From positions 10,540,001-10,604,000 of the forward strand of contig NC_073403.1 in assembly GCF_028641065.1 (NCBI RefSeq): DNA of 64,000 bases, in the 5' to 3' direction. The notes beneath the pieces are model-generated. The model worked only from the letters and a program-made list of their open reading frames with translations. It ran no database searches and had not been told where the DNA came from. Both the position numbers and the translations under genes were made by a program. The DNA is from Leucoraja erinacea (Eukaryota). Below are positions 13,661 through 64,000 of the stretch, one piece after another. Each line of letters begins with the position of its first letter. Within the stretch, counting starts at the first letter, position 1.

Positions 13661-13753
13661 GCGTGTGTTCCGAGGGCTGCGATAGATCAGACACTGAAGT
13701 CTACGAGTTCATACCAGCCGGTTTTGAGCCAAGTGACAGAAGAGGCAGAGACG

Positions 13754-24282: not shown

Positions 24283-26001
24283 CAGTGCCCTCCATAATCT
24301 TTAGGACAAAATCCCATCATTTATTTGCCTCTGTACTCAACAATTTGAGATTTGTAATAGAAAAAAAAGGAAAAAAAAGAACACAAGAAAAAAGAAAAGT
24401 CACATGTGGTTAAAGTGCACGTTGTCAGATTTTAATAAAGGCCATTTTTATACATTTTGGTTTCACCATGTAGAAATTACAGCAGTGTTTATACATAGTT
24501 CCCCCCATTTCAGGGCACCGTAATGTTTGGGACACGGCAATGTTATGTAAATGAAAGTAGTCATGTTTAGTATTTTGTTGCATATCCTTTGTATGCAATA
24601 ACTGCTTGAAGTCTGCAATTCATAGACATCACCAGTTGCTGGGTGTCTTCTCTGGTGAGGCGGTGATATTTACCTTATGCTTGTTTTGGGGGCTAGTCCC
24701 CTTCAGTTTTCTCTTCAGCATATAAAAGGTATGCTCCATTGGGTTCAGATCGGGTGATTGACTTGACCACTCAAGAATTGACCATTTTTTAAGCTTTGAA
24801 AAACTACTTTGTTGCTTTGTTGTCTGAAGAAGAGTCTCGACCCAAACGTCACCTATTCATTCGCTCCATAGATGCTGCCTCACCCACTGAGTTTCGCCAG
24901 CATTTTTATTTACCTTTGTTGCTTTAGCAGTTTGTTTGGAATAATTGTCTTGAGTTTTGAGGCATTTATTTGAACTTGAGCAGATAGGATGTGTCTATAC
25001 ATTGCAGAATGCATTATGCTTCTACCATCAGCAGTTGTATCATCAATGAAAATAAGTGAGCCAGTACCTTCAGCAGCCGTACATGCCCAGGCCATAACAC
25101 CCCCATCATCATGTTTCACAGATGAGGTGCTATGCTTTGGATCTTGGGCAGTTCCTTCTCTCTTCCATACTTTGTTCTTCCCATCACTCTGATATAAGTT
25201 AATCTTCGTCACCTCTGTTCACATGACCTTTTTCCAGAACTGTGGTTGCTCTTTTAAGTGCTTCTTGGCAAACTGTAACCTGGCCATCCTATTTTTGCAA
25301 CTAATCAATGGGTTGCATCTTGCAGTGTAGTCTCTGTATTTCTGTACATGAAGTCTTATGCGGATAGTGGTCATTGACAAATCCACACCTGACTCTTACA
25401 GAGTCTTTCTCATCTGTCGGAGAGGTGTTTGGGGATTTTTCTTTATTATAAAGAGAATTGTTCTGTCATCAGCTGTGGAGGTCTTCCTTGACCTGCCAGT
25501 CCCTTTGCGATTAGTAAGCTCACCAGTGCTTTCTTCCTAATGATGTTCCAAACAGTTGATTTTGTAAGCCTATGGTCTGACTGATGTTTCGAACAGCTTT
25601 ATTCTTGTTTCTCAGTCTCATAATGGCTTCTTTGACTATCATTGGCACAACTTTGGTCCTTGTGTTGATAAACAGCAATAAAAGTTTTTAAAAGTGAAGG
25701 AAAGACTATGAGAGCTCTTATACCTGCATTAAAGAGGCAATTAAACACACCTGAGCAATTACAAACACCTATGAAACCATGTGTCCCAAACATTATGGTG
25801 CACTGAAATGGGGGAACTATGTATAAACACTGCTTTAATTTCTACATGGTGAAACCAAAATGTATAAAAATCGCCTTCATTAAAATCTGACAATGTGCAC
25901 TTTAACCACATGAGATTTTATTTATTACAAATCTCAAATTGTGGAGTAGAGGCAAATAAATAAATGATGGGCCTTTGTCCCAAACATTATGGAGGGCACT
26001 A
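24283..26001 (-). mobile_element. Tc1/mariner DNA transposon copy A (degenerate)
   Basis: TA|CAGTGCCCTCCATAAT...ATTATGGAGGGCACTA|TA; long (~250 bp) TIRs; transposase remnant INLYQSDGK..VW..SVKH..GGVMAW; Penelope fragment nested at ~24819-24913 with 12-bp TSD CTTTGTTGCTTT. Confidence 0.92.
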
Positions 26002-29497: not shown

Positions 29498-29613
29498 TTA
29501 ATTACTGCAGCACTGGCTCCGATTTTGCGGACTGGTCTCCTGGAGGTCCACACCTCTGGTTCGGCCCGAGGTTCCACCTGCATTCTGAGGCTCGTTTTTC
29601 GGCAGCTTCTTGG
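29498..29613 (-). CDS. RAB5C: RAB5C last coding exon
   Basis: ag|CC AAG AAG...: (A)[37 protein letters not shown]; CCXX prenylation motif; 116 nt. Confidence 0.96.
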
Positions 29614-30842
29614 CTATATCAAAAAGTTTAATTAAAAAAAGTTACTGCAAAATTTATTTTGCACAATTTGAGCAATTATAGATCTAAATTTCAGTAGCTA
29701 TCATTTAATGAGAAACAGTACTCCCACCCACAATTTGGAGATAACACCAAGAAACAGATTAAATATAGACTCATGGTTGTGTATCGTTTCTATTTTGTCC
29801 ATGAAGCAGCAAACCCATTCTGCCCTGGATATCCATTCTGCCCTGGAGATGTCCTCCTGTGGTGGGTGCTCCACCAACCCCGGTATATTTATATATAATG
29901 CCCACAGGCCTTTTCCGGGTGAAATTCTTGAAAGTTAAAAAACCCCCCAAAAAAACATGCAGATGTTAGAAATCTGAAAACAAAAATGTAGGAAACACTC
30001 TGGAGGTCAATCAGCATTTGTGGAAATAGACAGTTAACATTGGAGAATTTGGTCGGCTTCCGAATTGACTAAAACATTTGCAAGGACAGGCCAAAGTTCC
30101 GATGAATGGTCTTCAACCTGAAATATTAACTGTTTCTTTCCACAGGTGCTGCCTGACCTGTTGAATTTTCCAGAATGAAGTTTTTATTATAAACAGTCGA
30201 GGCTGGAATAGGGATGGCTAAAGAATGGGGATCTCTAATTATAGGAAATGGCATGTTTAGGCCAGGCTTGTATTTATTGCCAAGTACTAATCACTCAAGA
30301 TGGTGATGGCAATGGGAGATAAATATTTTACTTGCAAATTTCCTTTCATATTTTCCCACCAATATCTTTTTTCTTCAATCAACCCAAGGACGACTGGTGC
30401 AACGATCGCATATTCATAGCCAAATCATTATCATTATTTTTCTTTTTTTTTTTAAACGGATTACGTTATCTGGATAGCTTAGGAACGGATTTTACGAGTA
30501 CGACATAAATACACAGAAACGCTTAATACCAGCATGTAACATCTAAAGGAACGATTTAATATTTGTCTTAAGACAGAAACAATATCCTGGTAATGATGCA
30601 ACAAGATAGGGATATAGCCCTGTGATTTCACATCAGTCTGCTATGATCACAAAAATAACATTTAGTGCGAGTGGTAGTAACTTACCATTTAAAATTAGAT
30701 AAAACCGAAATTATGCTGTCACTATGAGCACAAACTCAAACCAAATTGATTCCTCATAGCAGATATAAAAAACTAGTTGCAAGCAACTCAACTGACGGAA
30801 GATAAGAAACCACATTTAAAAGAATCAAGAATAGCCACATAC

Positions 30843-30936
30843 CTATGGCCATAAATATTTCATTCACATTCATTGCAGTCTTTGCTGATGTCTCCATGAA
30901 CAGCAAGCTGTTGTCTTCTGCATATGCTTGTGCTTC
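30843..30936 (-). CDS. RAB5C: RAB5C coding exon 4
   Basis: cag|[31 protein letters not shown]|gtatgt; 94 nt; ETSAK G5 motif. Confidence 0.96.
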
Positions 30937-31141
30937 CTGAATGAGAAAACAACTTAAATTCTAAATAGCAAAGTCCAAACATCTGCAGTACACACATCCA
31001 AAATGCAGAGACAATTTCAGTAAGAATTGTGCTTTTATATAACTGGTTTGGACTAGTCTTCTCTCTCGGGAGGGAAGGAGTTGGGAAAAATGGTTGTGGC
31101 AGTAGCTGAAATACCAAATGCAATTTTCCACAGTAACCTAC

Positions 31142-31264
31142 CTGAAATTCCACTGCTCGCTTATTTGCAAGGTCAGCCTTGTTCCCAGCTAATGCAATCA
31201 CTATATTCGGACTGGCTTGTCGCTGTAGTTCCTTTACCCAGTTCTTCGCCCGTGCAAATGTGTC
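31142..31264 (-). CDS. RAB5C: RAB5C coding exon 3
   Basis: aag|[41 protein letters not shown]|gtaggt; 123 nt; NKxD G4 motif. Confidence 0.96.
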
Positions 31265-32169
31265 CTTCAAAATCAAACGTTAAATTCAATTGAGTAGGAC
31301 TGAAGGCCGACATCATTTTTCATCCATATCAATGGCTTTTTAGGGGAAGTGGTACACTACTGGCCAATCTGCACACGTCAATTTAGATGATTGGAAAATG
31401 ACATTTCAATTAATGATGCTCTTTCAATCTGTGTTCCATTGCAGGACTATGTTTACTGCTACACAACTGCTCGACATAAAGTACACCTGTGCAACTAAAC
31501 CCGACTTAACCAAGGAAAAGTGGTCGTAATCTAAATTAGACAAGTGCAGGCACACAAATATGCCAAGTTGCAAAAATGTTTGACTGGGGAAAGGAACAAG
31601 CAGGTACAGCTCGAGACGTTAGCCTCAGGTACTGATTGGAACTTTACAACATTGCCAAAGATTTTATTTAGCGCAGTGCTCTAGGTCAGTGCAGACCTAG
31701 CGGCCAGAGGGTCTGTTTCCAAGCTGTATCTTTGACTAATACATTGCATGTTTTAAAAGTCAATTAAGCATGCAAAAAATACAATGATTGCCATACCTAA
31801 ATTTGAGATTCAAGCACCAGTATCAATTTATAATTTATTGATGTCATGATAAAATGGGTAATATGTGTCTGTGGTGAGAGGGACATCATGCAGTATTGTG
31901 CAAGGCAAAACCAACCACAAACAAGAACAAACTTTCACATTTTTGTACTTCGACTGCTTTTGTTGTGTTTTAAGGCCCTCCAAGAATCTTAAAACCAATG
32001 CTTTTAATTACGTTAATAAGGAGTGTGCACCATCACTGAAGGTACTTGCTACATGTGTCAATCTGGAGAGGCTCAATGCCTGCTTCAGTGAAGTGGATGG
32101 CTTCTGTTTAAAGGGCAAGAACAGACATATAGAATGTAAAAGCAAAACTAAGCAAGAGGAATTACTTAC

Positions 32170-32321
32170 TGTGTTGGTTATATCATAGACCACAATGGCA
32201 GCTTGCGCCCCCCTGTAGTACATTGGTGCCAAGCTGTGATACCTCTCTTGTCCAGCAGTATCCCAAATCTCAAATTTAACAGTTGTGTCATCCAAACAGA
32301 CTGTCTGCGTTAGAAAGGCAG
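32170..32321 (-). CDS. RAB5C: RAB5C coding exon 2
   Basis: cag|(A)[50 protein letters not shown]|gtaagt; 152 nt; WDTAGQE G3 motif. Confidence 0.97.
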
Positions 32322-33449
32322 CTGAAAGTGAAAATTGACACTCATTTCAGCTATGAGAGAAAAAAATCAAACTTATGCTATTTGTTCAATCTCAAACAAA
32401 TTTGAAAAGTTCACATGTAAAATTATCCCTATTCTGCCATGTGCCCTCAAAAATCATAATGCTTTGTTAATATTATGAAACCTGAGCGATATACTAGAAG
32501 GCCTTCAGTACATGAACTGGCCCAGTCCTACTCATGGTCATTGGATCATTTCAGCCTGTGGATATGGGATCGTACTCAAGAAATGGGGTATTGCCTCCAT
32601 TTGCATTGAGCAACCAATGAATATTTAAAAAACGGAACAAAATGTCTGTTATTTCATCTTCATGCACGGGAGGTCTTACTTACAAATGATTATGTCTATT
32701 CCCAATTACCCCAAAATGTTTAAAGTGTTTTGGAATCTTATTTCATCTATTTTTAAATACCATAGGCTAAATTGCAGATTTGTACACTTTTCTCTCCTCA
32801 AAGTTGAATTCTTAAATTTATCACTGGAGTGAACATGCTGACAAATTTCCACACTCCAAAGACAGAGTTGTGAGCAATTGCAGAACATTCCATCAAAGCA
32901 ATTTCACAATTAAAAATCTACTATAACCGGTCATAATTTTATCTCAAAGTACGAGGTCAATTTTCCCAATTACCGATTTCACTAAATGTTACGGCAATGA
33001 TTCTGCTTTAAAAGTAGTTATATACCAAGATCTGTACCACATTGTGTGCTTTAATACTACCTGCTGTTTTCAAGTTCAATGAACTGAAGCAACTTATGGG
33101 AAAAACACCCAATATAAAACAGGATTTGAACGGATTAGTTTGAATTGTGCTTACGCCCCATGTACAAGAATAAATAATGAAAGTTCACAAATTCTTAAGT
33201 CTTTCTCTGCCAAAATTGAAATAAAAGGAAAACAATGAACAGAATCTTGGCAGTCTGAAGAAAACTCGAAACAGCATAATTTAGTCAGACAAAAATAAGC
33301 CATCTGGGAACAGAAAGTTTAAGGTTTATGCCTTCTACGGTGGATTTTGTAGAACTTATGTAATTTAAAAAAAAATGGCCATATGTGCTTATTTGTTTGA
33401 AAGTCTATTCTACATCTCACTTTACTTGGAATCTCAGCTGTAGAACTCA

Positions 33450-33826
33450 ACAATTCAGTAATCAGAGACATCATGATGGTGATTCACAAGTTAAATATTG
33501 GACTAGTAATCCAGACACCTGGACCAACAACTTCCACCATAGAAGCCAAGGAATTAAATTTCTGATAATTAACTAAACTTATAAAAGCTAATCTTAGTAA
33601 TGACAGCCATAAAACCATCGGAGCGTTCCAAAACCCCCCTCAAGTTTACCAATGATCTTTATCGAAGTCAATCCATCTTCCATACCCAGAATGGTATAAG
33701 TGACTTCAGACCCACCAATGTGGCTGACCCATAAACATCCTCTGAAATGGCCTCGCTTGTCACTCAGCACAATGGCACTTAGGGATGGGCCATAAATGCC
33801 GGTCTCGTCAGTGACACCCAGATCTC
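33450..33826 (+). mobile_element. Ancient DeuSINE-like SINE remnant
   Basis: gacttcagacccaccaatgtggctgac...cctctgaaatggcct...cactcag and ataaatgccggtctcgtcagtgacacccagatc resemble, from memory, the Deu core and 3' end of SacSINE1/AmnSINE-type elements. Confidence 0.45.
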
Positions 33827-35117
33827 AACAAAAAACTAATGATAAGTTTTGTTCCTCTCCACCACAAGTTCCTCTCAACCTATCAATCCATCCACTCAGG
33901 AACATGATCCAATATCACCACTTGAATTCCCATTGTATCCTCGCTTGTTCTTATTAATCAGTCATTAAAATTATGGTTATTCATCATATTGTTTTTGCGT
34001 TGGAGCGTTTGCCAAAATCCCCCAACTTCAGAACAGTGCTGTTGGTATTGGAAGTACAAAAAGTGGAGCATTCCTCAGGTGCCTCTAACTTATATAAATA
34101 TCTTTTTATCCAGGATGGGGGTAATCCTTTTTCATTTGGTTGTGCAGGATGCGCTATTCTTGATAAACACTGCACAGCAAGTTTGATGTAGACATTTGTA
34201 TACCCTGTGTATTCAGATAAACACAGCTTGTTCTGATACCACAACCCTGAAGGAATATTACCCTTTAACACTGATCTGCTGCAATTTATCCAAGACAAAA
34301 GGAAACTTGAATGGAGCTGCAAAATTTATGTTCCTACCCTCATGACAAATAAAGAAATTATAACTAAGTCTCCATTTCACACTATGGAAGCAATAAAACA
34401 CAATTGCTCACTGAATAGTTATCTCTGGTGCTTCCTTTGATGTTTAGAAGCCATTCCCAAATCTGCTGAGGGTTAAACTGATTTACACAGGCTTATTACT
34501 AAAAACTCATTATGAAACATCAAATTAGAAATGCAAATTCAGGTGCTATACAATTTGAAGACAGAATCGGAACTTGGGGCCTTTAGATTGGCATGGATAC
34601 ACAGGGAATGGATATGGATCATGTGCAGGAGATGAGTTTAATGTATCTTATCATGTTTGGTATCAACACTGGGCCAAAGGGTCTATTCTGATGCTGTACT
34701 GTCTACGTTAAGTGTAGAATGTTGCCTTCCACTCCTTTGCTTTGACGCAGAAAGGAGCAGTATTATGGTGCAGCGTCATATCTGGTTTAACAAATGTGAT
34801 AAGCTGTGCAGAACAATGTAAACTACCAAGCTACTTTCAGCAGTGACAAAGATCCTTCGTAGCTTACTTAACATAAACAAATGCTTAATTTATGCAGACA
34901 GCACTATTCATGTATTCATGAAAGCACAACATTATCTACGTGGAGAAGTTGAAATTCCATCAAGTTGAAACCAAAGGGGAAAACAGCTCAGCATGGAATA
35001 CTCATTACAATCACTACCTACACTGTTTCAAAAAGCCATGGCTGGCGAACCAATTAATGGTTAAATAACATTAAAACCAGAGCTAGTTTACCAACAGAAT
35101 CAAAGTCAATCACTTAC

Positions 35118-35283
35118 CTCCAATTGTGCTTTCTTGGTATTCATGGAACTGTCCTTTCACAAAGCGCAAAACGAGACTGGATTTGCCCACTGCTGACTCG
35201 CCCAGGAGCACCAATTTAAACTGACAGATTTTGTTCCCAGCGGCTGGTCCATTGGATCGAGCCGCGTTACCCCGACCCGTCAT
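35118..35283 (-). CDS. RAB5C: RAB5C first coding exon (exon 2 runs to the acceptor at 35382)
   Basis: [55 protein letters not shown]|gtaagt; 166 nt. The N-terminus and HEYQE match the RAB5C paralogue. The five exons sum to 651 nt = 216 aa + stop. Confidence 0.97.
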
Positions 35284-35679
35284 GGCCTAAAGTGCAGAGG
35301 CTTGAAGAAACGTTCCAAGTTTCAACAGCAGAAGTGATGCGTCAAGGCTGAGACTTCAGAGGCCGCTATCAGCAAGTTCGAACTGCAAAACATATCAAAT
35401 TAATCTTGCATGATAGATTAAGAATTTGTTGTAGAGTCAAATTTCACGTGCACTAAATGCATAAAAATTATAGCTTTAGAACAAAAACCTCAATTGTTTG
35501 AGATCAGCCAAATATTTTTCTAAGCACTTTGAGAAAGAAAGTGCTTAGAAAAATGTGCTTTTCATGTGCTAAATAAATCCAAGATTTAAGAATTTGAGTT
35601 GCATTGTGAGAGAAATCTAATGTTATTCATTATTACATTACTCCCTGGTCATATTTTCAGTTGATTTGAAACAATACAC

Positions 35680-35772: not shown

Positions 35773-37779
35773 GAACGTTCAAGAGGTTTTTAGATAGGCA
35801 CATGCAGGAATTGGAGGGATATGGGTCACGTGCAGGCAGAGGAGATTAACTTAGCATCGTGTTCAGCACAGACATTGTGGACTGAAGGGCCTGTTCCGGC
35901 ACGGTACTGTACTTTATTCAATGAAACAGTGCAGGTTTTTCCAATCCTTGAACTCTGAAATTAAATGCCCTGCTAAGGTCTTTGAGTCTCCTGAACCAAC
36001 TTTTACGAAATAGAACCACGCCAAGGAATACAAACAGCACAAATGATTAAAGGTCCAGTGCAAAAGAAGTCTAATATTGGCAAGCTTCAGGTGGAACTTG
36101 AAGAAATTATCAAATACGGCAACTTTTTTGATTTATTGTCCTCTTCCAAATTGTCACTCATCGTGGCACAGAAGCCATTTTATATAGCTAGATTCTACGT
36201 CAAATGGCCAATCTGTGTTCACGTCAAGAATGAATACTTGCCAGGATTTCGCCGAATAGTGCTAGCACATCATGAAATACATCTGCTCCAATGCATCTAA
36301 AAAACACAGCTCTTAAACAGAATACACCATAGAATTACTTGAACTCATTGTTTATACCTCCTAATCTTTTGGATAATGTCAAGTGTGTCCACAAAGCTGG
36401 TACTAGGACCAAACAATACCAGTGAATTCAAAATTCCCACAGAATTCTAGTTATGCAGCACCCAAGATAGACACAAAAAACTGGAGTAACTCAGCGGGAC
36501 AGGCAGCATCTCTGGAGAGAAGGAATGGGTAACGTTTCGGGTTGAGACACTTCTTCAGACCAATATAGATTCCATGTACGTAATGTATACATACAAACAC
36601 CAGGCAAATAAAATGTTACAGGTAACGGATTGTATCTTGGGATATATTATTATACTAAAGACGCCATACAAAAGTAAAAGCTGTTCTTAATCATAGATAT
36701 AATTTTCATCATTAACCAACTATGGCCAATTGATATTCACAAAAAGCTGTAGTCCCCCATTCCTTCTCTCCAGAGATGCTGTCTGCCTCGCTGAGTTACT
36801 CCAGCTTTTTGTGTCTATATTCAGTTTAAACAGGCATCTGCAGTTCCTTCTTACACAATGGCCAATAGATGCTCATTTCAAAAGGATATCTGCTGATAAA
36901 TTATAACAAAGTATCCCAGACTAGATGAAGAGAAAATTTAGGTATTAGAAGAGGTAGGCAGAGATTAAGATGGAGAAGCTGCAAAATAAAAGTATTAAGG
37001 AAATAACTTTACATTTCAAATTGCAGTTGAAGGCTACATTTTGTAATGGCAATCAGAAGACCACGATTGTGTAAGAGCACAAAGCAGACAAAACTTCTGA
37101 GACAGATGAGAGATAAGCATGCCTAACCATATTTCAAAGGAAAACACCAGAGATATTAACTAGGATGAGAGTTTCATTCTTTCAAACAGTTGCCTTTACA
37201 GCATCACTCATCTGCACCAGTTTTCTCGTGGAAAATAAAATTCAAAAAGTTAATTGGGATTAACATTTTCTCAATTGACTTGACATTTACAAGTGGTTCT
37301 GATGAGATTAATTACCTATGCATAACCACTTTAACCGTGAAGAGCAGCTTTTTCTGCCACACTTAATTAAAACCAGCCCAGAGCCAAATTACGTAAACAT
37401 TTACACAGGCCAGTCAGGTTCAAAATGTTATGTGAATATGTTTTTAATAGCTTATTAATGAATATTCAGAAAGCAAAACTGACAAGAAATCACTGGACAT
37501 CTCTTTTGGAAACTATAACTTCTACCCCCAACATAAGTGGATATACGTCTGACTTCACCCAGCTAGATGCAAAATAATCTCAAACATTGGTTGTTTTCAA
37601 CATGCATATTACATGTCGTTGGAAAGTCCCTTGCCTGAATAAAAAACATTTTGCAAAATTTTGCCATGTTGACAATACTTGGTCTGAAAGGGGCTCAGAA
37701 CATAGAACAGTGCAGCACAAAAACAGGCCCTTCGGCCCATGTCTGTGCCAAACATACCGCCAAGACCATCACTTATTTA

Positions 37780-39192: not shown

Positions 39193-40555
39193 TATCTGCA
39201 CATAACCCATATCCTTGCATATCTATATGCCTATTCCAAAGTCTTAAATGTCATCAACGCATCTGCTTCAACGACCAACCCTGGCAGCAAGTTCCAGGCA
39301 CTCACTTTCTTCACACATCTCCTTTAATCTTAGCCCCCCCTCATCTTAAAGCTATTCATTCTAGCATTTGATTTTTCCATCCCGAGAAAAATATTCTGCT
39401 TGTCTACCATTTCTCTGCCTGTCGCAATGTTGTATACTTCCATCAGGTCTCCCTGTAACCTCCGGCAGTCCAGAGAAAACAATCCAAGTTTGTCCAATCT
39501 AAAACCATCAATCCAGGCAGGCATCATGCTGGTAAAGCTCCTCTGTACCCTTTCCAAAGCCGCCACATCTTTCCTATAATGGGGTTTCCAAACTGCACAC
39601 AATACTCCAAAACGTCATTTGAACACTGAAGAGTACAAGTAATGTGAAACAGTTGATATTTTGCTCAAAAGCATGGCATTGATTGTTCATGGTTTGTGAA
39701 AAGCAACAAAAAGTGAAAAGGACAGTTCCAAGCTATTGCTTTGAAGTATCCTTCAAATCAATGATTGCTTTGTTGTTTGAATCTTTAATCCATTGCAATC
39801 ACAATTGCTACTAATGTCTGTTTAAAAATAAACTAAGTTATAAATCAAAAACACTGTATTACATAATGTTTCAACAAAGTGTAATAGCCTCCAGTTTTCA
39901 CATTCCATAATGAACCTAAATAAAATTTGAGTGGCCATTGTTTTGCGAATTAATCAGAAGTTGACAGTGTTCAATTGAGAATGTGGAGATGAAAGGAGGT
40001 GGTGTGTGGGAGATTTGATAAAGAAAAAAGCTAAAGGGCAGACAAAAATGCTGGAGAAACTCAGCGGGTGAGCAGCATCTATGGAGCGAAGGAAATGGGC
40101 AACGTTTCGGGTCGAGACCCTTCTTTAGACAAGGGCAAGAGTAAGGGCAAGTTAGTTTCAGAGACTGCTGACCTAAAAGGAGGGAAAGAGTGGGAGATTT
40201 GAAAAACATCCATTAGTTCCTGGGAGTGGACGCCTGCAATGGTGTACAAAAGGCAGATACCAGTAAAGTGGCTGTGATTGAAGACAGGTGCTGAAGCTTG
40301 GGCTCAAGACATTGGCGAGAATGCGGAAGGTAAGTCTTGTTAACCTTTCTTCTATGACCATGGTGCTGTCTGGATGTTCCTGCTGCAGAATGATGGAATT
40401 TCCATGATCCCTAGAGACTACACCTGTGGGAGACATGCAGCTGAACCTTTTGACTGACTGCATGAAGGAACTCGATGCACTCAGGCTCATCTGGGTGCTT
40501 GCTGATAGCAGAGATACTATTTTTATTGAGGTGGCCATACCCAATGCGAAGCTAA

Positions 40556-45500: not shown

Positions 45501-47488
45501 AGTGACTGATCACAAGCCACTACTAGTGATACTTGGTCCCAAGTCAGCTATACCTTCCATGGCGGCATCGAGGATGCAGCGCTGGGCAATTTTGCTGTCC
45601 CAGTTTGACTATAACGTTGAGTACAGAAGCTCCAAGTGCAACAGTTGCAGGTGCCTTGTCCCCATGAGAACTCTGACGTGGGAAGTGAGAACTCCATCTA
45701 CACACTGCAAGTTGTAGATGAATACTTTCCAGTGACTGCAACAGAAATTGCAGCAGAAACAAAGAAAGACACTGTGCTAAAGTGGGTCTATGAACAGACA
45801 TTGAATGTTTGGACTGAAATTGATAGTGGATTAAACTCAGTTCTGAATTCAGAGCTGAAGCCTTTCCATAATCAACGCCATGAATTATCATGTGAGCAGG
45901 GATGCATTAAGTGGGGTTACAGAGTGCTTGTACCAGAGTCTTTGAGAAACAAAATTATGAATGAACTTCATGGCATAGTAAGCATGAAGTCAATTGCCAG
46001 AAGTTTTGTGTATTGGCCTGATATTGAGTGAAATCGAGTCACTGGTGAGCAAATGTAGAGCCTGCCAAAATTGCCAGGGTAAACCACCATTGCAACCCTG
46101 GTCATGGCCATGTAGACCTTTTCAGAGAGTTCATGTAGATTTTTGTGAAAAAGGTAATGATCACTTTCCGGTACTAGTAGATAGTCATTCCAAATGGATT
46201 GAGGTTAAGCATATGGGGTCAAGCACTACTACTGAGTGTAGCATAGACGAGTTGAGATCAATTTTTACATGCCATGGTGTATTGGAAGAACTTGTTTCTG
46301 ATAACAGGTCTCAGTTTCCTTCAGAACGGTTCAAATAGTTCATGCAGCGGAATGGTGTAAAACACACACTTGTTCCCCCATACCATCCAGCCTCCAACTG
46401 GGCAGCGGAAGGGTCTGTTAGAGTTGTCAAACATGCTCTCAAGAAACAGGTTTTGCAGGGTAGTTCAAAGCTCAGCATGAAACATCGTTTGGCTAGTTTC
46501 TTGCTGAAGTACAGAACCACACAACAGGTTTCTCACCCACAGAACTGTAGATGAAGAGAAGGCTAAGAATACGCCCAAGTCTAGTTCAACCCAATTTGGC
46601 CTTGAGAGTTGAGCAAAAACCGTTGTCAAAAACCCATTTTGACTCCCACAAAAAGGAGAGGTACTTCAAGCCAGATGAGCAGGTACTTGTACTCAGTCCT
46701 CCCAACAAGTCCAGTCGAGACAAATGGGATGTTGGGAAAATTGTAGAAGTGTGTGGAACAAAAAGATAGTCAATTGAAATTGGAGATAGGACCAAAAGTG
46801 TTCATGTTGATCAAATGATTCCAGCCAAAGATGAACCAAAAACTGAGCATGAAGTCCTAATCCCTGAGTTTTCATTTGAAAGCGAGTTGGAAGAGACCAC
46901 TGTGATTGAAACACAAAGTTCAGTTAGTACAGACAAAGAAACAGATTCCTCTGGTCCAAGTCAGGGTACTAAATTAGAGCCAAGCAAGCCAACAGTTGAG
47001 TCAACACCTAAACCTGTTACACCTGTTACTGTTAGACGATCAGGCAGGATCCGTAAACCAGTCTGAAGAAGGGTTTCGGCCCGAAACGTTGCCTATTTCC
47101 TTCGCTCCATAGATGCTGCTGCACCCGCTGAGTTTCTCCAGCTTTTCTGTGTAACCTCCGTAAACCAGTAGTTAGGTTTGTAAGTTAAGTAACTCACTGC
47201 ATAAGTAAAATGAAAATGTGTAGATATGTAAAATAAATATTATGTTTATCATTTAAGATTTCATAAGTACTGGTTTAAATAGAGTATCACAACAACAAAA
47301 TTGTAACTGAGTACTTAGATTTAATACTTAAAAAAAGGAGCGCAGTGTAATGTATTCATGCATATTCATGATATATGTTAATGAGTTGGTGTTGTCTATA
47401 AGCAGGGAATGTTGGGTAATAAATCTCTTTCGTGATCCAGGCATCCTGTGTGTAAGTTGTTATTCATTCTGCCGTCCGGAATATAACA
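42576..47488 (+). mobile_element. Ty3/Gypsy LTR retrotransposon, full-length but degenerate
   Basis: LTRs 42576-42716 and 47346-47488 (TGT...ACA); 5-bp TSD GCATC; PBS TGGCGACGAGGA (42721-42732, tRNA-Ser-like); purine tract before the 3' LTR; gag CCHC knuckles, then PR, RT (LDLSHAYAQL), RNase H (LACDAS), integrase (RVHVDF, VSDN, PYHPASN). Confidence 0.95.
47063..47156 (+). mobile_element. Penelope-like short insertion with hammerhead-like motif, nested in Gypsy
   Basis: Core CTGAAGAAGGGTTTCGGCCCGAAACGTT at 47063-47090; 13-bp TSD TCCGTAAACCAGT at 47050-47062 and 47157-47169. Confidence 0.75.
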
Positions 47489-50518: not shown

Positions 50519-52257
50519 AAACTGATGTGTAAAAAAATTAAGATGGTTTGAAAATATTCTCAAAAGATATAGCTGTGATTTATTCCGTAAGTGCTTGTTG
50601 AAAATCCACAGTGCATTGTTTTTAGCGCATCAGGCTACAGCATTGTCAATGAATGACTACATTGCTAATTTGAACAATTAAATTTCTTACAAAACATCTG
50701 TTTGCAGACTGTTCAACAAGTCTAGGGCTGTTTGATAGATGGTTTTACTCTTTCTTTTGCGTTGCAACACGAAGGCAGGGTAGAGGTAGATGATAAAAGA
50801 ATGTTGTTCAACAGGCCGAGTCAAATATCAATTTGAGTCTCCAAACACCAAATTATAAAAATGTACCTTCAGCTCTATTTGAATCCTGGGCCAATCTGAT
50901 CTAAATAAAATCTCAGCAATATGCTGCAAGTCATCACCCCATATGGGAGTGGAATGCTGCATGTGGCAATGTGAAGAAAAAGTGCACACACAGTAGAAAA
51001 GACAAACAAGGGTCCCTCGTTTCTCATCACTATTCAGACGCTGCCCGAACTGCATGATACAACCTCCTCATACCTGAAGCAGCTTCCAGATTCATAACAC
51101 CTCAACCCCATGTGAAAGTCTTACACAGAGGCTTATGTCAAATACTTTATCATACGAAGATGGTATGCAGAGGAAAATCAAAAGCTATACTAAAAAGCTA
51201 TTCAAATCGTGAAGAATGGAAAGCGTACTTTAATCGGTATTACTGCCAAGATTGCTCTTCCAATGCATTACTAACCATGATAATTCCCCTTGGACACATA
51301 TTATAACAATTCAAATCTGAAATTCTGATACAGGTAACAGCAATATATAAATATCTGACACTGGATAGCAAGACAATTGCCCAGTGGGAGAAAACAACCA
51401 ACTTACAATGTCTTTACATAGAAGGAGCCCTTATCTCCCCAACATCAAACTACTCCTGACCACTTTCATCATAATCACATTAAATTTGGTGTTTCAATAT
51501 AATGATTACCTAGTCCAAGAGTACCACATGCAACACCATGAAAGCCAAATACTGTTCTAACCTTTAACTGTACAGCCTGTTCTGGGTTATTGCAGAGTTC
51601 CATACTGGTGAACTGTTTGTAACCCAAACAGTTCTCAAGTTGGAAATGCAGACAGGAATGCCTACAACCCCACAACGGCTGTCAAATCCTTTCCACCAGT
51701 TTCACAAATGCTCATTCTAATGCATGGGTTGTTCATAAGTTATCAGAAGCTGGAAGGACCTGTAGTGATTAGTGTTTCCAAGCATTCAATCAAATACAAA
51801 CTTTTACAGTATTTTCACACTATTTCCCCTAAAATGATTACTAATCCTATTAAAAATTAGTACGTAAAAATGCTTAAATTAGCCAACTGCCATTAACGAA
51901 TTAAGTTTAAATGGGGTTTAAGAAATTGGAAAAACAGTCAACTGATTAATGGTACATGTTTCATTGATTATAATAAAGTAGTTCATAAACAGCACCAGCT
52001 ATCACATTTTAAACACCTTTGGCAGAATGCTCCAAGCTGACCAGAAACCAAATTACTACTACAATCTTTCTCCAATGCCAAAGCTAACTTTGGAGAAACC
52101 TACCCAAATGAATAGTTAATGTTTCAGATTAGATGTAAGCATACTATTAGTCAGCTTTCAACTAAAATAGTACTATATTGAAAAAAGTGCATGTTGGCTT
52201 TGGTTGAAGCTGTAAAGGTTTTTTACGAGAATAGTTCTAGGAATGAGAGATTCCAAG

Positions 52258-52640
52258 CTGACCTCCCGGTGGCTCAGCACTTCAACTCCCCCTCTCACTC
52301 CGTCTCCGACCTCTCTGTCCTGGGTCTCCTCCATGGCCACATCGAGCAGCATCGGAAATTGGAGGAACAGCACCTCATATTCCGTTTGGGGAGTCTGCAT
52401 CCTGGGGGCATGAACATCGAATTCTCCCAATTTTGTTAGTCCTTGCTGTCTCCTCCCCTTCCTCAGTCCCCCTGCTGTCTCCTCCCATCCCCCAGCCTTC
52501 GGGCTCCTCCTCCTTTTGCCTTTCTTGTCCCCGCCCACGATCAGTCTGAAGAAGGGTTTTGGCCCGAAACGTTGCCTATTTCCTTCGCTCCATAGATGCT
52601 GCTGCACCCGCTGAGTTTCTCCAGCTTTTTTGTGTACCTT
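52258..52640 (+). mobile_element. Penelope-like element 3' part (GIY-YIG C-terminus, 3' UTR, hammerhead-like motif)
   Basis: DLPVAQHFNSPSHSVSDLSVLGLLH...RKLEEQHLIFRLGSLHPGGMNIEF, typical of the PLE endonuclease end, continuous with a pyrimidine-rich UTR and the core at 52546-52573. Confidence 0.8.
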
Positions 52641-55600
52641 ATAATTACATTGATGGAGTACAAAATTGGTTTTATCTCTTCACACTAGATGTGAGAGAGA
52701 ATTGGTAAATGGTTTCAAAGATAAACAGTTTGGATAGAAATAAAGTTTGTTCCAAAGGTTGAATTGATAGCCATGGGGCACAAATATAAAAGTTTGGTAA
52801 AAGAGCAAGAGATGACAACAATTTTAATACCACTTGCTTCAGATTTGGAATACATTTAAAATACTGAAAATTGATTCAGAATTTGGCAAGTACTCAGCAA
52901 AATAAATTGCACGGATTTGAGACAAGTGAAGGGGATTGCAACTAAGCAGACTGAACTTCAAAAGAGCCACCGCAGAATCAATAAAGCATTAGTTAACGAT
53001 TCAATGAGGTCACAGCTGAAGTCAGTTACTAATACCACTTGACACATGCACCAAAAATGTGTTCCTGCCCCTACTAAACTGACTTCAAGCTGCAGCTTAC
53101 AAGAATTTTGAGTAAAGTCAAAACCCCACTAATTTACAGAAACTCATTGAAAACAAACAAGCCGACATCTGAAGTGATATTAGGACCAGCCTCAAAATGG
53201 ATCAGATCCTAATCTGGCTTCAGATGTCAAGCAAACATTTTCTTGTACTTTTCCATTCTGCTTAAATACCTTTACCCTTTAAGCATTTCTAGGAATTGAA
53301 ACATTTTTGCAATCTATACAGAAATGTAAATGTATAAAGTTATTTTTATATGAAGGAATAAGGTTTATGCCTGTGGGGCAAAACCATTTTTAGAAATGCC
53401 AGTTTTTGCTTTGGAAATATAAAATCTGAGAAATTAATGGCAAATAAATTATAACACAACGTGAATTTATCTGCTGTAATTGCAAGTAATGGATTTTAGG
53501 TATGTCGTTTGCATGAAGTAAAAATAATCAGTGGGTGGGGCTTTCATCATTTTGATCTTGTAATTGGGTAAACTGAAGTGGCCCAATGGGCTGGACTCAG
53601 CACTGACACTGTCTGTTTCAAGGCTTCGAAAGTCAACCAACCACAAATGGACAAGGGCGTCCAATTTCAAGGATCAGTAGATCCTGTAATCCGACTGGTC
53701 TAGCAGCTATAGACTGACAACTCAACATTGGGGGGGGGGGGGCCTGAAGATATACCAAATCCAAAATAAAAATTAAATTCTAGAAATATTCACCAGGTCA
53801 AGCAGCATCTGTGAAGAGGGGAATAGAGTTAACACTGCAGACTTCTTTGACTCTGGCACTGCATATTGCCATTTACAGTGAAATTTACAAAGAAATCATT
53901 AATAACCTAACCACTTCTTTAATCTCCCATTTCCCCTTTGCGTGAAAGTCCTTACCAGCTTCAGATCGCACTTTGATTCCACATTGCAAAAAGGGAACGA
54001 GCTACTGATCTACAATTACAATATGACTGGTGCAGTCTAACCACCAGAGGGTTTGCAATTAATACATTTCTGGGCTAATTTTATAGGAGGAAATGTGGAC
54101 AGTGCTATAAAACCCAGATTTACTAATTATCTGGACCTATATGGATAGGAAGGGATTCGAGCTAAATATAATATGGGCAAAATGCAAGCAAGCAACTTGT
54201 CCAGTGAGTCAACTTGGTTGGCAAGGATATGGTGGGCTAAAGGGCCCCGTTTCCGTGCTGTGTGGGTATGTGACTCGTGTCGTTTGTCAAAGAGAACTTG
54301 GTAAAACTGCCTTGCCTGACTTGCATCGATTCATTTAATTGTTATTTGTTGACCAAATACATTAAGTGTTGCTTCCGATTACCATTAACTATAAATTAGC
54401 AATAAAATATGACTTTTAGAGAAAGCCGATAAAAAGGAAGCAAAATAATCTTTCCCTATGATGCTAAGAAGTCAACCAAAATAGTTCAAAGGTAAAAAAA
54501 AGCTTTTTTTTCTTTCTTCTCCCCGCCTCCCCCCCCCACCCCCATCAATCTGAAGAAGGGTTTCGGCCTGAAACGTTGCCCATTTCCTTCGCTCCATAGA
54601 TGCTGCTGCACCCGCTGATTCTCCAGCATTTTTGTGTATCTTTGATTTTCCAGCATCTGCAGTTCCTTCTTAAAAACTTCTTAACCAAAATAGTTCCACC
54701 TGTTATTTGCAGTTCAAGAACCAAAGACCCACCAATTGATTTGATGCACATTTGAGAAACCAATATTTGCATTTAGGGTTGCTTCATGAAGTTAATTATG
54801 TTGCAAGTGCAGTTGTATATATTTACATTTATGTTCCTACTAAGACCAAACTAGTGATGAGACTCAAGGCAATTTGTGGAAGAATGCAGTGGGCACAGTT
54901 TCAGCTAAAATATTTCCATTAACATCTTGTTTGATCATAAATAGAGCAATAATTTGGAAAGAAATGTACAAATTTAGACAGGCTATGGTTCAATATTTTG
55001 AATCTGTGCATGCCCCTGAATCCCCAAGATAGATAAAATGGCTGGGTTTCTCCACTCTTATCTAGCTAGTCTGTCTAAAATGCACGCATGAACAAACAAG
55101 TGAAATATAATATACACAAAGATAAGCATGCTTCTGGCTCAAATGTGATAAAAGGCCACTTATGGAAGGAACTTCAGGCATGTAAAATGAGGCTATAGAT
55201 GTTTTAGAAGCAGTGGGTTTAAAGCGTGGACGTATCTTGGGACTCAGTTTTAATTAAATCATTTTCCTCAGATGAAAAAATATCTTTATTCTGTAAACTG
55301 GAGACATTTTCTAAAATAGTTATAGAGAGTGCTCCAATTTCTAGCAAACTTGGGCCCACAGTGCAAAACTGGTCTTAAATAGCAATGTGAAAGGTCACAG
55401 AAGTCTGATATCAGGAACCTGCCCCTCACTTAAGATGGCATCATGGACTTACTGAGCAACTGCCATTGCTATTTAGGAGTTTGAGACAACAAATCCAATC
55501 CAAGGCGAGAATTCTGTTCTGCACTACTAATTCATGCAAAAATGGGATGGAATGAGGTGAAACGGGCAGAAGTGGGGTGGGGGGGGGTGTGGGGTTAAGA

Positions 55601-58600
55601 GAAGGGGGTATGGTGCAGCCATAAGTGGGTTACGAGAATGATCCCAGAGATGATCGGGTTAACGCATGATAAGTGTTGATGGCTCTAAGCTTGTACTCGG
55701 TAGAGTTTAGAAAGATGAGGGGGGACCTCATTGAAACTTACAGAATCATGCGAGACTGGATAGAGTGGATGTGGAGAGAATGTATCCACTAGTAGGACAG
55801 TCTAGGACCAAAGGGCACAGCCTCAGAATAAACAGATGTTTAAAGGGTATCAAAAGTTACAGAGAGATGACAGAAGAATGGAGTTGAAGGAGAAAGATGG
55901 GTCATTTAATCATGGCTGACCTAATTCTATTCTTGGAACATATGAACTTAAAGAAATCTGTCTGGTGCCAAAAAAAGCTGTTACAAACTAGAAATAGCTA
56001 GAAGCCCTGAAACAAACACTGAAGCAGGTTTAAAACCCTGGAAACCCTAATTTTAGTCTATGTATACATGATGTTTGTTCAGGCAATTGCATTTCACTGG
56101 AAATATGTTTGGCAGCACCTGCCAGCATTGATGAAGAGTTCTGAACACGAAATGCTAGCTGCTCCTCTTCTGATGGGTCCTACCTGCTCTGCTAAATGCT
56201 TCTAGCATTTTTGTTTTTACTTCAGACTCCAACATCTATAAAATCTTGAATTTCAAATGAATGTTACAAATTCAAAACAAAATCTACTAAACTAAAATAT
56301 ACTGTATAATTGAAATAAAGTTTGATCAGGTGAAAAAAATGCAAAAGTTAAATCAGATATGAGCATCACGTTCCTCCCTGACCTTGAGCTATATCTGGTA
56401 CATGCTCATCATTTCCACTTCCTCATATGCTATGGGAAATTAGAAAGAGAGAAAGTCCATTGTCACGTCAAACAGACAACACCCAACAAAAATGGATCCA
56501 ACAGATCAGCAAAGAAACTAAAGTGTGGAAGCGTTCTGGATGAATCATGGAGTGTTTATGTTCACTCTCCTTGATCCCTCTGGAAAACATTTTGGGAAAT
56601 TCAAATTATATCTTATTCACAGATGAAACATGATTATAAAAGCTACTTGCTGAAGAGAGGATTAAAGCCAAACAATTATAGATCAGGAGGGTGGGGGAGA
56701 GAAGAGAGTGGAAACAACGTGACAGAGCAGACTTAAGGTAGCACTAAAAAGGCAACATCTCAGGTAATCAACTATGCTCCAACATTCGTTGACACTAAAT
56801 ATTTAAGTGTACAAATCGAAGTTTTGAAATAATGCCTATAAAAATACAAGTTGATTCAAACTAGCATGACAAAATGCATTTGAAATTCTCCATTCAAATG
56901 ATTCATAGAACTATCCTTTGAAAGTTCACTGCAAGTTTATTGATGAGAACCCAGTGTCTCTTGCTTACAACGCCAATGTCATTCAGTTCATTTTCAACAC
57001 CAAAATTGTACTGCTGCAATTATGTCTTTCCTAAAACTGGGAAATCTCTTTGACACTAAGTAGAATGTAAGGCTAGTAAAAGCAAACATTTTATATTAAA
57101 TGCCCAGCAAGAATAACGTTTCTTATTCTTATTACAATTAATACACCTTTTATTTGATTGGTTAATGTTTCAATTCAGGAGTGACACTGCACAACTTGCA
57201 ATTTTCTCATTCTTGCATTTAGGCAAGTCCAAAAGCATCTCCAAGTACCAACAAATTGCATATTTCTAATTAAAACATGCCATATTTTGCACAAAAATAC
57301 CAGTATAACTGAACTTTTGCATGAAGCATCATCACATTTAAAATGAAAAGCTCTTTAGATTCCCTGCCCCATGTACCCAAAATCTGGGGGGAAATGCATT
57401 CAGCTTGGTGGTGATAGTGAACGATGCCAGGCTTGTAAGGAAAATCTTGCTGTAAATCTCTGAAACTACACTAGCTACTGACAAGACATTACAAACTACA
57501 AAATTCACATAGCACAGGAACCAGGCCCTTCAAACCCAAGCTTTAAATTCATCATTCACTGCTCATTTCCCCATGTCCTCTAAGTGTTTCCTTTTAAACT
57601 ACAAATGTAATGCACTTTTGAAAGTTACTTTCAAATCTGGCCCCACCATCTTTTCCGACAATTCCCTCCAAGTCACGATCTTCTACTTAAGAATGTCCTT
57701 ACTACTTCTGGTTCTTTTAATCAGAAATTTCAAAACTGATGATTGAAATTTGATAGTAGAAACAATTTAACAGTTTATCAAAATTAATGTTTTATTCAGC
57801 CCACCAGAATCTCTACTTAATCTTGGCTGTTTTAAGCAAAATAAATTACATTTATTTTCTCAAATTGCCAAAGTCATTTATCCCTTGAATCACTTTGAAA
57901 TGAAAACTGGATTGCCAACTCAATCCATTTCTCTTCGGCGTTTCATAACCTTAAAGTGAGAAATTAAAAACCAAGTAGACACGAAATGCTGGAGTAACTC
58001 AGCGGGTGAGGCAGCATCTCTGGAGAAAGAATGGGCGACGTTTCAGGTCGAGACCCTTCTTCAGATTGGTAAAAACCTAGTACCTTCACCCAGAATTGAA
58101 TGAAGGCATTAGGCAACCTGTCATTTGGCTGATGAACAAGATAATTTATCTTTGCTGATCTGAGGAATACATCCTACAAAACAGTCTTACAAGCCAAATA
58201 AAAATCAGCCTGAGGTTTCTGCCAAAAAGGAGAGCAATACTAACTGCAAGGAAGGAATGCAATATTTGCAACAACCTGGGCCACTCTTGGACCGTCTCAT
58301 GTGTACTCAATATTGCACTTCCTGTTTTTGTTTCATTTTGTAGGTTGAAATGGGAATTGTGGAAGAGAGAGCCTCTTAACTCAAAACAAAATTGCAAATA
58401 CTCTGGTTACGTAGAAGCAAATAATTATATACGTTTTGTTTTTTTGCAGGACTGACAAACCAATACATTTACCAACAATTCAGAATTGGTAAAGGCAACT
58501 ATTTTTAGTTTTGTAAAAGGTTCTGCATCTTTGAAAACACCCAATAAAGTACACTTTACATTTTGTAGTGTTAAAACAATTATAATGGGTATTTACTTAA

Positions 58601-59465: not shown

Positions 59466-59640
59466 ACGGTGGCAACGGAGCAAACAAGGGCGGCGGTGTC
59501 GGCGGCAACGGCGTCGCCCTTCTCCCAACTCTTATTCCACTTCTCTTCACTGCTTCAGATTAAACAAAACTCCGGGCCCAAGTCTCGGCCTCCACTTCCG
59601 CCTTTCCGCCTTCGCGTCGCCGGCCCGCCCATACCTCCTC
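59466..59640 (-). other. RAB5C: Probable non-coding exon 1 of RAB5C
   Basis: Minus-strand donor ACCGT|gtgagt at 59466/59465 inside the main CpG-rich island upstream of exon 2; the TSS is approximate. Confidence 0.65.
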
Positions 59641-59905
59641 CGGAAACCACGTTGCGAGGGAAGGGGGCGGGATGTTTCCTTGAGCGACATTGAATACACC
59701 CAATCAGTGAGCGAAGCTGACGGACGCTCAGCCGGAGCAGTCGGGTGACACGAGGGGTCCAATAACAGCGGCGCTGTGCGAAGTCGGGCCGATGACGGAG
59801 AATCAGCAGCACGCTGCCAGCCCATGAGGTCATCACGTACAGACGGAGGTTATGCAGACTACAATTCCCAGAAAGCATTGTGCAGAGAAGCTTAGCCACT
59901 TCCGG
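59590..59905 (-). promoter_or_regulatory. CpG-island promoter of RAB5C
   Basis: ETS sites (ACTTCCG ~59594, ACTTCCGG ~59898), GC box GGGGCGGG 59664-59671, CCAAT at 59700 and 59759, ZNF143/THAP11-type ACTACAATTCCCAGAAAGC at 59858-59876. Confidence 0.75.
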
Positions 59906-60009: not shown

Positions 60010-61024
60010 CCTAATTTGAGGAAGGACATCCTTGCTATTGAGGGAGTGCAGCGTAGGTTTACAAGGTTAATTCCCGGGATGGCGGGACTGTCGTATGCTG
60101 AGAGAATGGAGCAGCTGGGCTTGTACACTCTGGAGTTTAGAAGGATGAGAGGGGATCTCATTGAAACATATAAGATTGGTAAAGGTTTGGACACGCTAGA
60201 GGCAGGAAACATGTTCCCGATGTTTAAGAGGGAACTGCAGATGCTGGAGAATCGAAGGTTACACGAAAAGCTGGAGAAACTCAGCGGGTGCAGCAGCATC
60301 TATGGAGCGAAGGAAATAGGCAACGTTTCGGGCCGAAACCCTTCTTCAGACTGATCGGGGGTGGGGGGGTGGGTGGGGACAAGAAAGGGAAAAGGAGGAG
60401 TAGCCAGAAGGCTGGAGGGTGGGAGGAGACAGCAGGGGAGCTGAGGAAGGGGAGGAGACAGCAAGGACTAACAGAACTACACCCCCGGGGCATGAACATC
60501 GAATTCTCCCAATTCTGTTAGTCCTTGCTGTCTCCTCCCCTTCCTCAGCTCCCCTGCTGTCTCCTCCCACCCTCCAGCCTTCTGGCTACACCCACCCCCG
60601 ATCAGTCTGAAGAAGGGTTTCGGCCCGAAATGTTGCCTATTTCCTTCGCTCCATAGATGCTGCTGCACCCGCTGAGTTTCTCCAGCTTTTCTGTGTAACA
60701 TGTTCCCGATGTTGGGGGAGTCCCGAACCAGGGGCCACAGTTTAAGACTAAGGAGCAAGCCATTTAGAACGGAGATGAGGAGACACTTTCTCTCACAGAG
60801 AGTGGTGAGTCCGTGAAATTCTCTGCCTCAGAGGGCGGTGGAGGCAGGTTCTCCTGATGCTTTCAAGAGAGAGCTAGATAGGGCTCTTAAAAATAGCGGA
60901 GTCAGGGGATATGGGGAGAAGGCAGGAACGGGGTACTGATTGGGGATGATCAGCCATGATCACATTGAATGGCGGTGCTGGCTTGAAGGGCCGAATGGCC
61001 TACTCCTGCACCTATTGTCTATTG
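60010..61024 (+). mobile_element. CR1 LINE 3' end interrupted by an inverted Penelope insertion
   Basis: RKDILAIEGVQRRFTRLIPGM...; nearly identical to 12898-13419 apart from the insert. Confidence 0.9.
60225..60696. mobile_element. Inverted (fold-back) Penelope-like insertion
   Basis: Minus arm 60225-~60476 and plus arm ~60480-60696; 17-bp TSD AACATGTTCCCGATGTT at 60208-60224 and 60697-60713. Confidence 0.85.
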
Positions 61025-62020: not shown

Positions 62021-62611
62021 TGGGGTCTGGATTGGTGCCACGGAGGCGTCTGGAGAGGACCTGGCAGCGATGGTGGAGACGTTGGTGCGACGGTCGATGA
62101 TGGGGCCAACTGACAGACGAGGACTGACACGTGGAAGTGAGGATGACACTGCCAAGGGAAGGAGCAAAAGAGGACCGTGAGGGAGGGGGGAAGATCAACG
62201 GGGACCCGCCGTGGAGGTGGGGGGAGAACAATGGAGAATGAAGGAACCTGCGTGGGGGACCACTGTGAGGGAGGGAAGTACAAAGGGGGAACTGGCCCAA
62301 GGGGGGGGGGATTTGTAACTTTATGTGCCCTTTATGGGTGACTATATGCGAGCACATGTCACAATAAAGTATTCATTTCAATTCGATAAACATCAAAATG
62401 CCAAAATGCCAAAACACCAAAACATCAAAAGAGTAACTCAACAGGTTCGGCAGCATCTCTGGAGGAAAGGAATAGGTGATGTTTCGGGGTAAGACCCTTC
62501 TTTTGCTCTCCCTCCATCAATTAAACTCCCTTGGCTCTTATTTATATCTTTCACATTTTTATTGTTCTTTGACCTAAACTCCTGAATAGTTATGATCAGA
62601 TGTTTCATTAC

Positions 62612-62992: not shown

Positions 62993-63088
62993 AAGGGTCT
63001 GAAGAAGGGTTTCGGCCCGAAACGTTGCCTATTTCTTTCGCTCCATAGATGCTGCTGCACCCTCTAAGTTTCTCCAGCATTTTTGTGT
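62993..63088 (+). mobile_element. Penelope-like short insertion with hammerhead-like motif
   Basis: gggtCTGAAGAAGGGTTTCGGCCCGAAACGTTgcct; 14-bp TSD AGCTC(T/C)ATTTGAAG at 62979-62992 and 63089-63102. Confidence 0.72.
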
Positions 63089-64000
63089 AGCTCCATTTGA
63101 AGGCCATCCTCTCTAATGGACCCAATATCCCCCTTATTGTGCTGAACCTTAAACCGAGCACAGTATTCTTAATAAGATTTGGTGATCTTATCTGTTATCT
63201 TAATATGAGCTTGTCTAGATTAGACTTCATTTTGATTTTGCAGGTTGTCAGTAAGAAAGGTCAGCGGGTTTGAGAAATCAGCCTCGTTAAAATATGGTAC
63301 TAAATTGATTATATTTTGCCAAAGCACCTGTCGTTTGTAAAAATGTTTTTCTACAAAGTACCTTGGACCACAACTCCATGAAGTGGTGATCAGCACAATA
63401 CATGATTACACTCGAGTTATCCACAGTGCACAAAAACATGATAAAGGGAATAATGTGAATAGCGTTTAATGCAAGATAAAGCCAGTCAAGTCCGATCAAA
63501 GATAGTACGAGGGTCTCTAATTATATAGATAGTAGTTCAGGACTGCTCTCCAGTTGTTGGTAGGATGGCTCAGTTGCCTGATAACAGCTGTGGAAAAACT
63601 ATAGCTGAATCTGGAGGTGTGCGTTTTAACACTTCTATACCTTACAGCCCGATGGGAGAGGGGAGAAGAGGGAGTGACTCAGGTTGTTCAATGTTGTTGA
63701 ATGCACATTCCAAGATTTAGGAGTATCTGCTGCATCTTGAAGTTCATTTGGTTACAGCTGTAATTGGCTCTGTTGTACTTGATTTTGTATCTAACATTGT
63801 TTCAAAGGTGAAAATCAAATAAAATAATTGAATACTGTAAATCTGAAACAAAAACTGAAAATGCAGACAAAATTGATCCTTCTTACACTCATTTTGCACC
63901 CCTGTCCGCAATTTCCCTATGATCTCCCCTCTGTCTCGTCGACCTCTACCCACATCCTCCCCCCCTCCTGCTTTGCATTTCACTTCTCCATTCCTCTCCG

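Follow-up and report, generated by a model that had tools for sequence, protein, structure and literature searches.

Minimal hammerhead ribozymes (min-HHRs) of metazoan Penelope-like elements (PLEs) share a consensus with an extra base after CUGANGA, a loopless palindromic stem III and a GUU or GUC triplet, and they occur as thousands of solo copies in a genome (Cervera and de la Pena 2014, PMC4209133). In vitro, their monomers are inactive and their dimers slow (PMC4209133). No cartilaginous fish appears in Fig. S3 or in the text of Table S1 of that study. Among PLE clades, a CX2-5CxxC linker between RT and EN is diagnostic for Neptune, Nematis also having the linker (PMC8557442). The hammerhead of PAc, a Poseidon element of Anolis, cleaves only with protein, insertion does not require the cleavage, and the template is mainly uncut RNA (Frangieh et al. 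2024, PMC11167929). Non-LTR retrozymes are pLTR-derived, hammerhead-bearing, non-coding and arranged in tandem arrays, with one chondrichthyan reported (bioRxiv 10.64898/2026.07.22.740005). A literature search outside subscription journals and Repbase turned up no study of PLE hammerheads in chondrichthyans, nor one describing 5' ends that coincide with the edge of the motif.

The window analysed here is a stretch of 64,000 nt from the skate Leucoraja erinacea (contig NC_073403.1, positions 10,540,001 to 10,604,000), and it carries a minimal hammerhead motif on the plus strand at 47063..47090 (C3..N17, GUU). The 28 nt comprise C3-U4-G5-A6-A7-G8-A9, an extra A, a 4-bp stem II (GGGU/GCCC) with a UUCG loop, G12-A13-A14, the palindrome ACGU and U17, so that the core, extra A, stem II and GAAAC-GUU of the original prediction are confirmed letter by letter. 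As in metazoan PLE min-HHRs, we find CUGANGAH, a G-C pair at G10.1-C11.1, GAAAN-palindrome-UH without a loop 3 and a short helix I (PMC4209133). The loopless palindromic stem III (ACGU) and the extra base after CUGANGA had also been predicted; both are present, but they are the published consensus (PMC4209133). CUGANGA plus one extra base, a stem II of 3-7 bp and GAAANNUH are found together at 47063 and in eight other copies. Cleavage of the 47063 copy is predicted to fall between 47090 and 47091.

Helix I sets the skate element apart from the published set, being only 2 bp long with U.G as its first pair. At 47063, 52546, 60349 and 60607 it consists of U.G and G-C followed by A x C, and the proposed stem I of 3-4 bp was not recovered at 47063 or in the element-borne context. 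The published descriptor (Fig. S7, PMC4209133) demands 3-7 bp, a length found in 2 of 16 copies. A 2-bp helix I is outside this search descriptor yet within the family range, because Fig. S3 contains 2-bp cases from Culex, Drosophila and Oikopleura (PMC4209133). Rfam covariance models applied to the window gave 27 matches at E≤1, none of them to a hammerhead family, as expected of a motif without helix III. Rfam matches to microRNA families at 60.4-60.6 kb were all under the gathering score; they reflect inverted arms and were rejected.

The longest copy ties the motif to its parent element. A C-terminal GIY-YIG fragment of a Neptune-type PLE ORF, including the stop codon, lies at 52254..52439 (plus strand); it is followed by a spacer of 81% pyrimidine (52440..52545, plus) that ends ATCAG-T right before the core and looks start-site-like or acceptor-like, and then by a hammerhead with a UUUG loop and the element 3' end (52546..52640, plus). 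The hammerhead starts 106 nt past the ORF stop, which is the pLTR position after GIY-YIG described for metazoan PLE min-HHRs, and as in those elements most copies are solo (PMC4209133). The predicted continuity of the 52546 copy with a GIY-YIG C-terminus was upheld by a 65-codon frame upstream and its protein matches, 14 in number, the best being a Leucoraja erinacea protein at 86% identity. Pfam gave no match on the 65-codon fragment alone, and all four scanned relatives match PF01541 (E 2.5e-4 to 8e-3, under the curated cut-off). The CX2-5CxxC linker is present in the relatives P0003 and P0011 and in a contig match, L002, described below; the corresponding region is missing from the window. 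RT is likewise absent from the window, and the RVT_1 match in P0011 is weak. Judged by these sequences, the element is probably a Neptune-type PLE, its clade assigned through relatives, with only the last 65 codons in the window and no full-length element seen.

The dispersed repeat unit of ~95-130 nt, with the motif at its head, is the 3' end of this PLE. Copies end near +90 or near +128 from C3, and a tail of ~35 nt is found in 5 of 19. Exact target-site duplications (TSDs) of 9-13 nt flank 5 of the 19 copies examined and TSDs of 10-14 nt with one mismatch flank four more; exact duplications of at least 10 nt arose in 0 of 300 random pairs, a null that covers exact matches only. With TSDs at both junctions, the copies are retro-insertions. 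At 60225..60696 an inverted PLE pair sits in a LINE, its minus copy with a tail (C3 60349) and its plus copy tail-less (C3 60607), between 17-bp TSDs at 60208-60224 and 60697-60713, and a paralogous LINE has the unbroken target site at 13096-13112. Metazoan PLE min-HHRs are likewise known to occur as opposite-strand pairs, 100-700 bp from each other (PMC4209133). We noted further opposite-strand pairs of old Penelope ends at 2198-2354, 18586-18729, 29978-30176 and 36458-36825, perhaps older inverted insertions like 60225-60696.

The family therefore shows the EN+ PLE hallmarks of 5' truncation, an inverted partner and an optional 30-40-nt tail, and it resembles Neptune-clade PLEs in its C-terminal GIY-YIG, 5' truncation, inverted 5' partner and a 30-40-nt tail at one end (PMC8557442). 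Like PAc, it has an uncut RNA template and two 3' ends that lie downstream of the hammerhead and differ by a tail (PMC11167929); unlike PAc, it belongs to another clade and its copies have no ATG at stem II. Non-LTR retrozymes are similar in being pLTR-derived, hammerhead-bearing and non-coding, but they form tandem arrays (bioRxiv 10.64898/2026.07.22.740005), whereas the skate copies are dispersed with TSDs and same-strand copies in the window lie at least 1.9 kb apart. In two DNA runs, 86,468 and 64,033 contigs match the 521-nt element end; summed contig depth was not taken as copy number. The copy load seems far above the 4,000-9,000 of coelacanth and Xenopus (PMC4209133). Contig counts, the GIY-YIG link and the consensus match together support the predicted very high-copy Penelope-like family with a minimal type I hammerhead.

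We then asked how many copies retain the motif. A profile built from 13 window copies gave 29 matches at E≤0.05, including all 16 sites listed in the original prediction, and none in the reversed window used as control. A relaxed min-HHR descriptor in which helix I was not demanded found 10 sites, nine family copies and one unrelated, against a mean of 0.12 and a maximum of 1 in 200 dinucleotide shuffles. When the published descriptor (Fig. S7, PMC4209133) was re-implemented for the 16 copies, two passed with a helix I of at least 3 bp (19910 and 62999), six with at least 2 bp and nine without a helix I demand. All 16 sites thus exist, but only nine keep core and stem II; the other seven (531, 8181, 21772, 24824, 36558, 40128 and 62507) fail even without helix I through damage to the core or stem II.

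The 47063 copy is a Penelope-end insertion of 94 nt (47063..47156, plus) in the short tail-less form, with 13-bp TSDs at 47050..47062, whose last 4 nt also match the element, and at 47157..47169. It lies in the flank of an LTR-retrotransposon remnant; this degraded remnant (zinc knuckle, protease) spans 43042-47170, with the copy inside its last reading frame. Young plus-strand copies stand at 19893..20002 (3-bp helix I passing the published descriptor, 10-bp TSD), 21769..21900 (with tail, C3>G, TSD), 54506..54675 (with tail, C11.1>U) and 62994..63090 (4-bp helix I by junction duplication, TSD of 14 nt with one mismatch). Older copies include 438..531 (minus, core damaged), 8181..8272 (plus, damage in stem II and stem III), 17117..17247 (minus, tailed, with a 12-bp TSD, an intact core and a 1-bp helix I), 24820..24913 (plus, G12 deleted, 12-bp TSD) and 62431..62503 (minus, without the 5' core). 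Older, more diverged relatives of the repeat lie at 30096-30176, 20566-20635, 53769-53824 and 56129-56218, the first of which preserves remnants of another stem II and of a helix I of 4 bp.

At 62988-63009 the first ~11 nt of the motif are tandemly duplicated at the 5' junction, which has improved helix I by chance. The constructs originally suggested for cleavage assays are accordingly poor choices, with helix I at 62999 a junction by-product and the 58064 copy damaged. The proposed subfamily change in stem II stands insofar as the variants stay paired; U.G versus U-A is a one-sided change and not a compensatory one. Similarly, both GUU and GUC occur, but the split into young GUU and older GUC copies is not clean: an older-type stem occurs with GUU in 36558 and 40128, and GUC accompanies the younger G1.1 in 58064. 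The stem II region of young copies (47072-47087) forms a near-perfect DNA palindrome, around which contigs have many strand-switch joints.

To compare conservation, 15 copies were scored against the majority, with 62507 left out. Over all differences the core changed in 3 of 164 cells versus 85 of 857 in the tail, and this higher core conservation fits selection on the masters. Singleton non-CpG changes were found in 3 of 150 core cells versus 21 of 798 tail cells (p=1.0); judged by these singletons, core and tail of the copies appear to decay at the same rate, consistent with neutral decay. Core and stem II combined had non-CpG differences in 13 of 255 cells versus 75 of 798 in the tail (p=0.037, the copies not being independent), and CpG decay within the ACGU palindrome affected 7 of 30 cells. 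Subfamily-shared variants fell in none of the 11 core columns and in 10 of the 58 columns of the tail, a difference that is not significant (Fisher p=0.34, using 9 of 58 tail columns with helix I position 1.1 omitted). Shared variants at stem II, N17 and position 1.1 obey the motif rules, but one-sidedly.

Folding is predicted to disfavour the ribozyme state in the copies, in models without tertiary contacts or protein help. The predicted probability of stem II is at most 0.06 for 47063, 60349, 19910 and 58064, four of five copies tested, and 0.4-0.8 for 62999, through its junction duplication; for L002 it is 0.99. In these predictions GAAGGG pairs with a downstream UUCCUUC, or the near-palindromic GUUUCGG/CCGAAAC pairs. 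For dimers of 47063 the active fold is placed at -7.1 kcal/mol versus -25 to -51 kcal/mol for the best, an estimated cost of at least 18 kcal/mol.

L002 provides an independent comparison. A genome-contig scan with a core and stem II pattern, helix I and the ORF lying outside the pattern, gave two matches. The first, L001, lies in bacterial coding-like DNA and was discarded as fortuitous. The second, L002, is a Neptune-like ORF end whose GIY-YIG tail is 49% identical to the window fragment, with the same core and stem II 87 nt past the stop and GUC. Its helix I has 4 bp of ACAC/UGUG type, in which both sides differ from the skate motif at the first two pairs and still pair. The identity of the core is circular, because it was the search pattern; helix I and the ORF are not. 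At the sequence level, L002 thus supports selection on the hammerhead fold in master lineages. The match (L002 3001-4083) sits in a bacterial-MAG contig, likely as animal contamination of that assembly. Scans for the exact motif in metagenome and viral contigs gave none, and none of 164 pattern matches in a metagenome protein scan was confirmed.

The window also includes a host gene. Rab5 coding exons run from 35.3 to 29.5 kb (29498..35382, minus strand), and we take the paralogue to be RAB5C from its sequence and HSP20 neighbourhood. The sole CpG island upstream of the Rab5 exons is at 59.25-60.0 kb, and a candidate first exon (59466..59900, minus) ends there at a GTGAGT donor at 59465, so that RAB5C intron 1 would extend over ~24 kb. 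Given an exon 1 at 59.5 kb, the copies at 47063, 52546 and 54550 would be antisense to RAB5C. Those in sense are all damaged: 36468..36560 (minus; the 36558 copy) has a stem II mismatch, 40040..40130 (minus; 40128) a core G5>A, and 57975..58068 (minus; 58064) C11.1>U, giving G10.1.U11.1, and a 1-bp helix I, all three in the probable intron 1. G5 of the hammerhead core is essential. The implied action of several motifs inside RAB5C pre-mRNA is thus not supported: sense copies are damaged, intact ones antisense, and solo copies lie kilobases from a same-strand partner. Three versus three copies of different ages cannot show purging from RAB5C.

Elsewhere in the window are three intronless HSP20/alpha-crystallin (hsp30-like) genes (2606-3414, 6796-7772 and 13434-14410), two of them an inverted pair 99% identical and 5.7 kb apart, and two ~90% identical repeat copies with a transposase-like translation (24681-25951 and 37998-39140), presumably of Tc1 type.

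RNA data came from run X23 (poly(A), another organism, 6% read). Among 7,827 RNA reads, the unit was about equally represented on both strands, as copies lying within host transcripts would be. X23 showed no place with many molecule starts or ends, poly(A) data being weak for 5'-OH ends. A shift of the first-mate strand ratio from ~1.02 to 1.10 past the cut site was left unused, since a subfamily mix suffices to explain it and the library direction is not given.

Taken together, the motif is probably the known minimal hammerhead at the 3' end of a Neptune-type PLE, and the dispersed copies short end insertions in which it is likely an inert passenger. Its role, if any, most likely belongs to the tandem RNA of the master, where it would act as a dimer assisted by protein. 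By analogy with other PLEs, the element protein would nick DNA and prime reverse transcription inside its own RNA, at one of two sites ~+90 and ~+128 from C3, and the cDNA would mostly stop at the 5' edge of the motif. Because the copies keep the core upstream of the cut site, their RNA templates were uncut. Cleavage, if any, would be confined to the master's tandem transcript, through a dimer formed via ACGU and probably aided by protein. Solo copies likely do not cleave, as they have no near partner and a helix I of 1-2 bp, and their core is predicted to pair with the downstream UUCCUUC. The 47063 copy is likely inert, being likely antisense to the host gene and predicted to misfold.

The 5' limit of the insertions is sharp and does not coincide with the cut site. 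Upstream of C3, similarity to the element extends for only 0-5 nt in ten of 14 copies, and eight of the nine 5' ends defined by TSDs are no more than 6 nt from C3. On the element, each of the four runs shows a 10- to 40-fold step up in depth from bin 52524-41 to bin 52542-59, and loose ends with random flanks occur at 52544 in three of the four. The accessible account of PAc (PMC11167929) holds no counterpart of this clustering. Release of the RT may account for it.

A tentative refinement of the passenger-motif explanation, and perhaps the simplest account of the limit, is run-off: element RNA would start 2-3 nt ahead of the core, and internal priming at a point ~90-130 nt further on would lead to a copy of this leader alone, in a strong-stop-like manner. 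We consider this possible, at a good deal less than even chances. The sequence ATCAGT just before the core presumably resembles an initiator. The 5' ends clustered at C3, the depth step and the loose ends at 52544 all agree with run-off, as does PAc, which primes internally and whose product is shortened by 5' truncation of its RNA (PMC11167929). In D. virilis, however, the start is ~120 nt upstream, before a 75-nt intron (PMC4209133), the C-rich linker is variable, and the depth step is partly an alignment effect. It is conceivable, with similar reserve, that internal priming on this uncut leader produced the very large family of strong-stop-like 95-130-nt insertions; the near-core start (2-3 nt) and the downstream anti-core stretch would then hold the leader ribozyme off until the element protein refolds it. 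If true, the insertion ends would map the RNA start and two priming sites of a vertebrate Neptune element.

Rather less likely, the short unit could be a SINE-like element in its own right, non-autonomous, with masters of its own and moved by the Neptune protein. A sharp 5' limit, subfamily variants, TSDs and a several-fold excess over ORF sequence would suit such an element; but young short copies resemble the end of the ORF-bearing copy at 95-98%, intermediate lengths exist (19910, 54550, 60349 and 52546), no promoter boxes were identified, and the units are not in tandem, unlike retrozymes. We think it distinctly unlikely that the pyrimidine tract with its CAG acts as a 3' splice site, whose use would give helix I a better 5' strand and switch the ribozyme on in master RNA. 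The 81% pyrimidine spacer does close with CAG, a single base ahead of U2.1, the intron of D. virilis stops at helix I and several Fig. S3 entries have, by eye, AG just upstream (PMC4209133); against this, no RNA reads fall on any of the 15 joints listed, of 94, and the loose ends at 52544 share no exon (agreement 0.33). That dispersed copies are active ribozymes cutting host pre-mRNAs such as RAB5C, alone or in trans, is very improbable: nine keep core and stem II, abundance is very high, they occur in poly(A) RNA on both strands and all three RAB5C sense copies are damaged, as purging predicts, but those three are also of the older type (n=3), core decay looks neutral, misfolding is predicted, RNA ends do not pile up, and monomers are inactive and dimers slow in vitro (PMC4209133).

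As a ribozyme finding, the skate motif is ordinary: it adds a further host to a motif known since 2014. What the family adds is very many dated copies whose 5' ends fall on the edge of the motif instead of the cut site, from which it follows that the transposed RNA was uncut. The family is therefore a test bed, in which a well-powered test is possible of whether intact sense copies are purged from introns.
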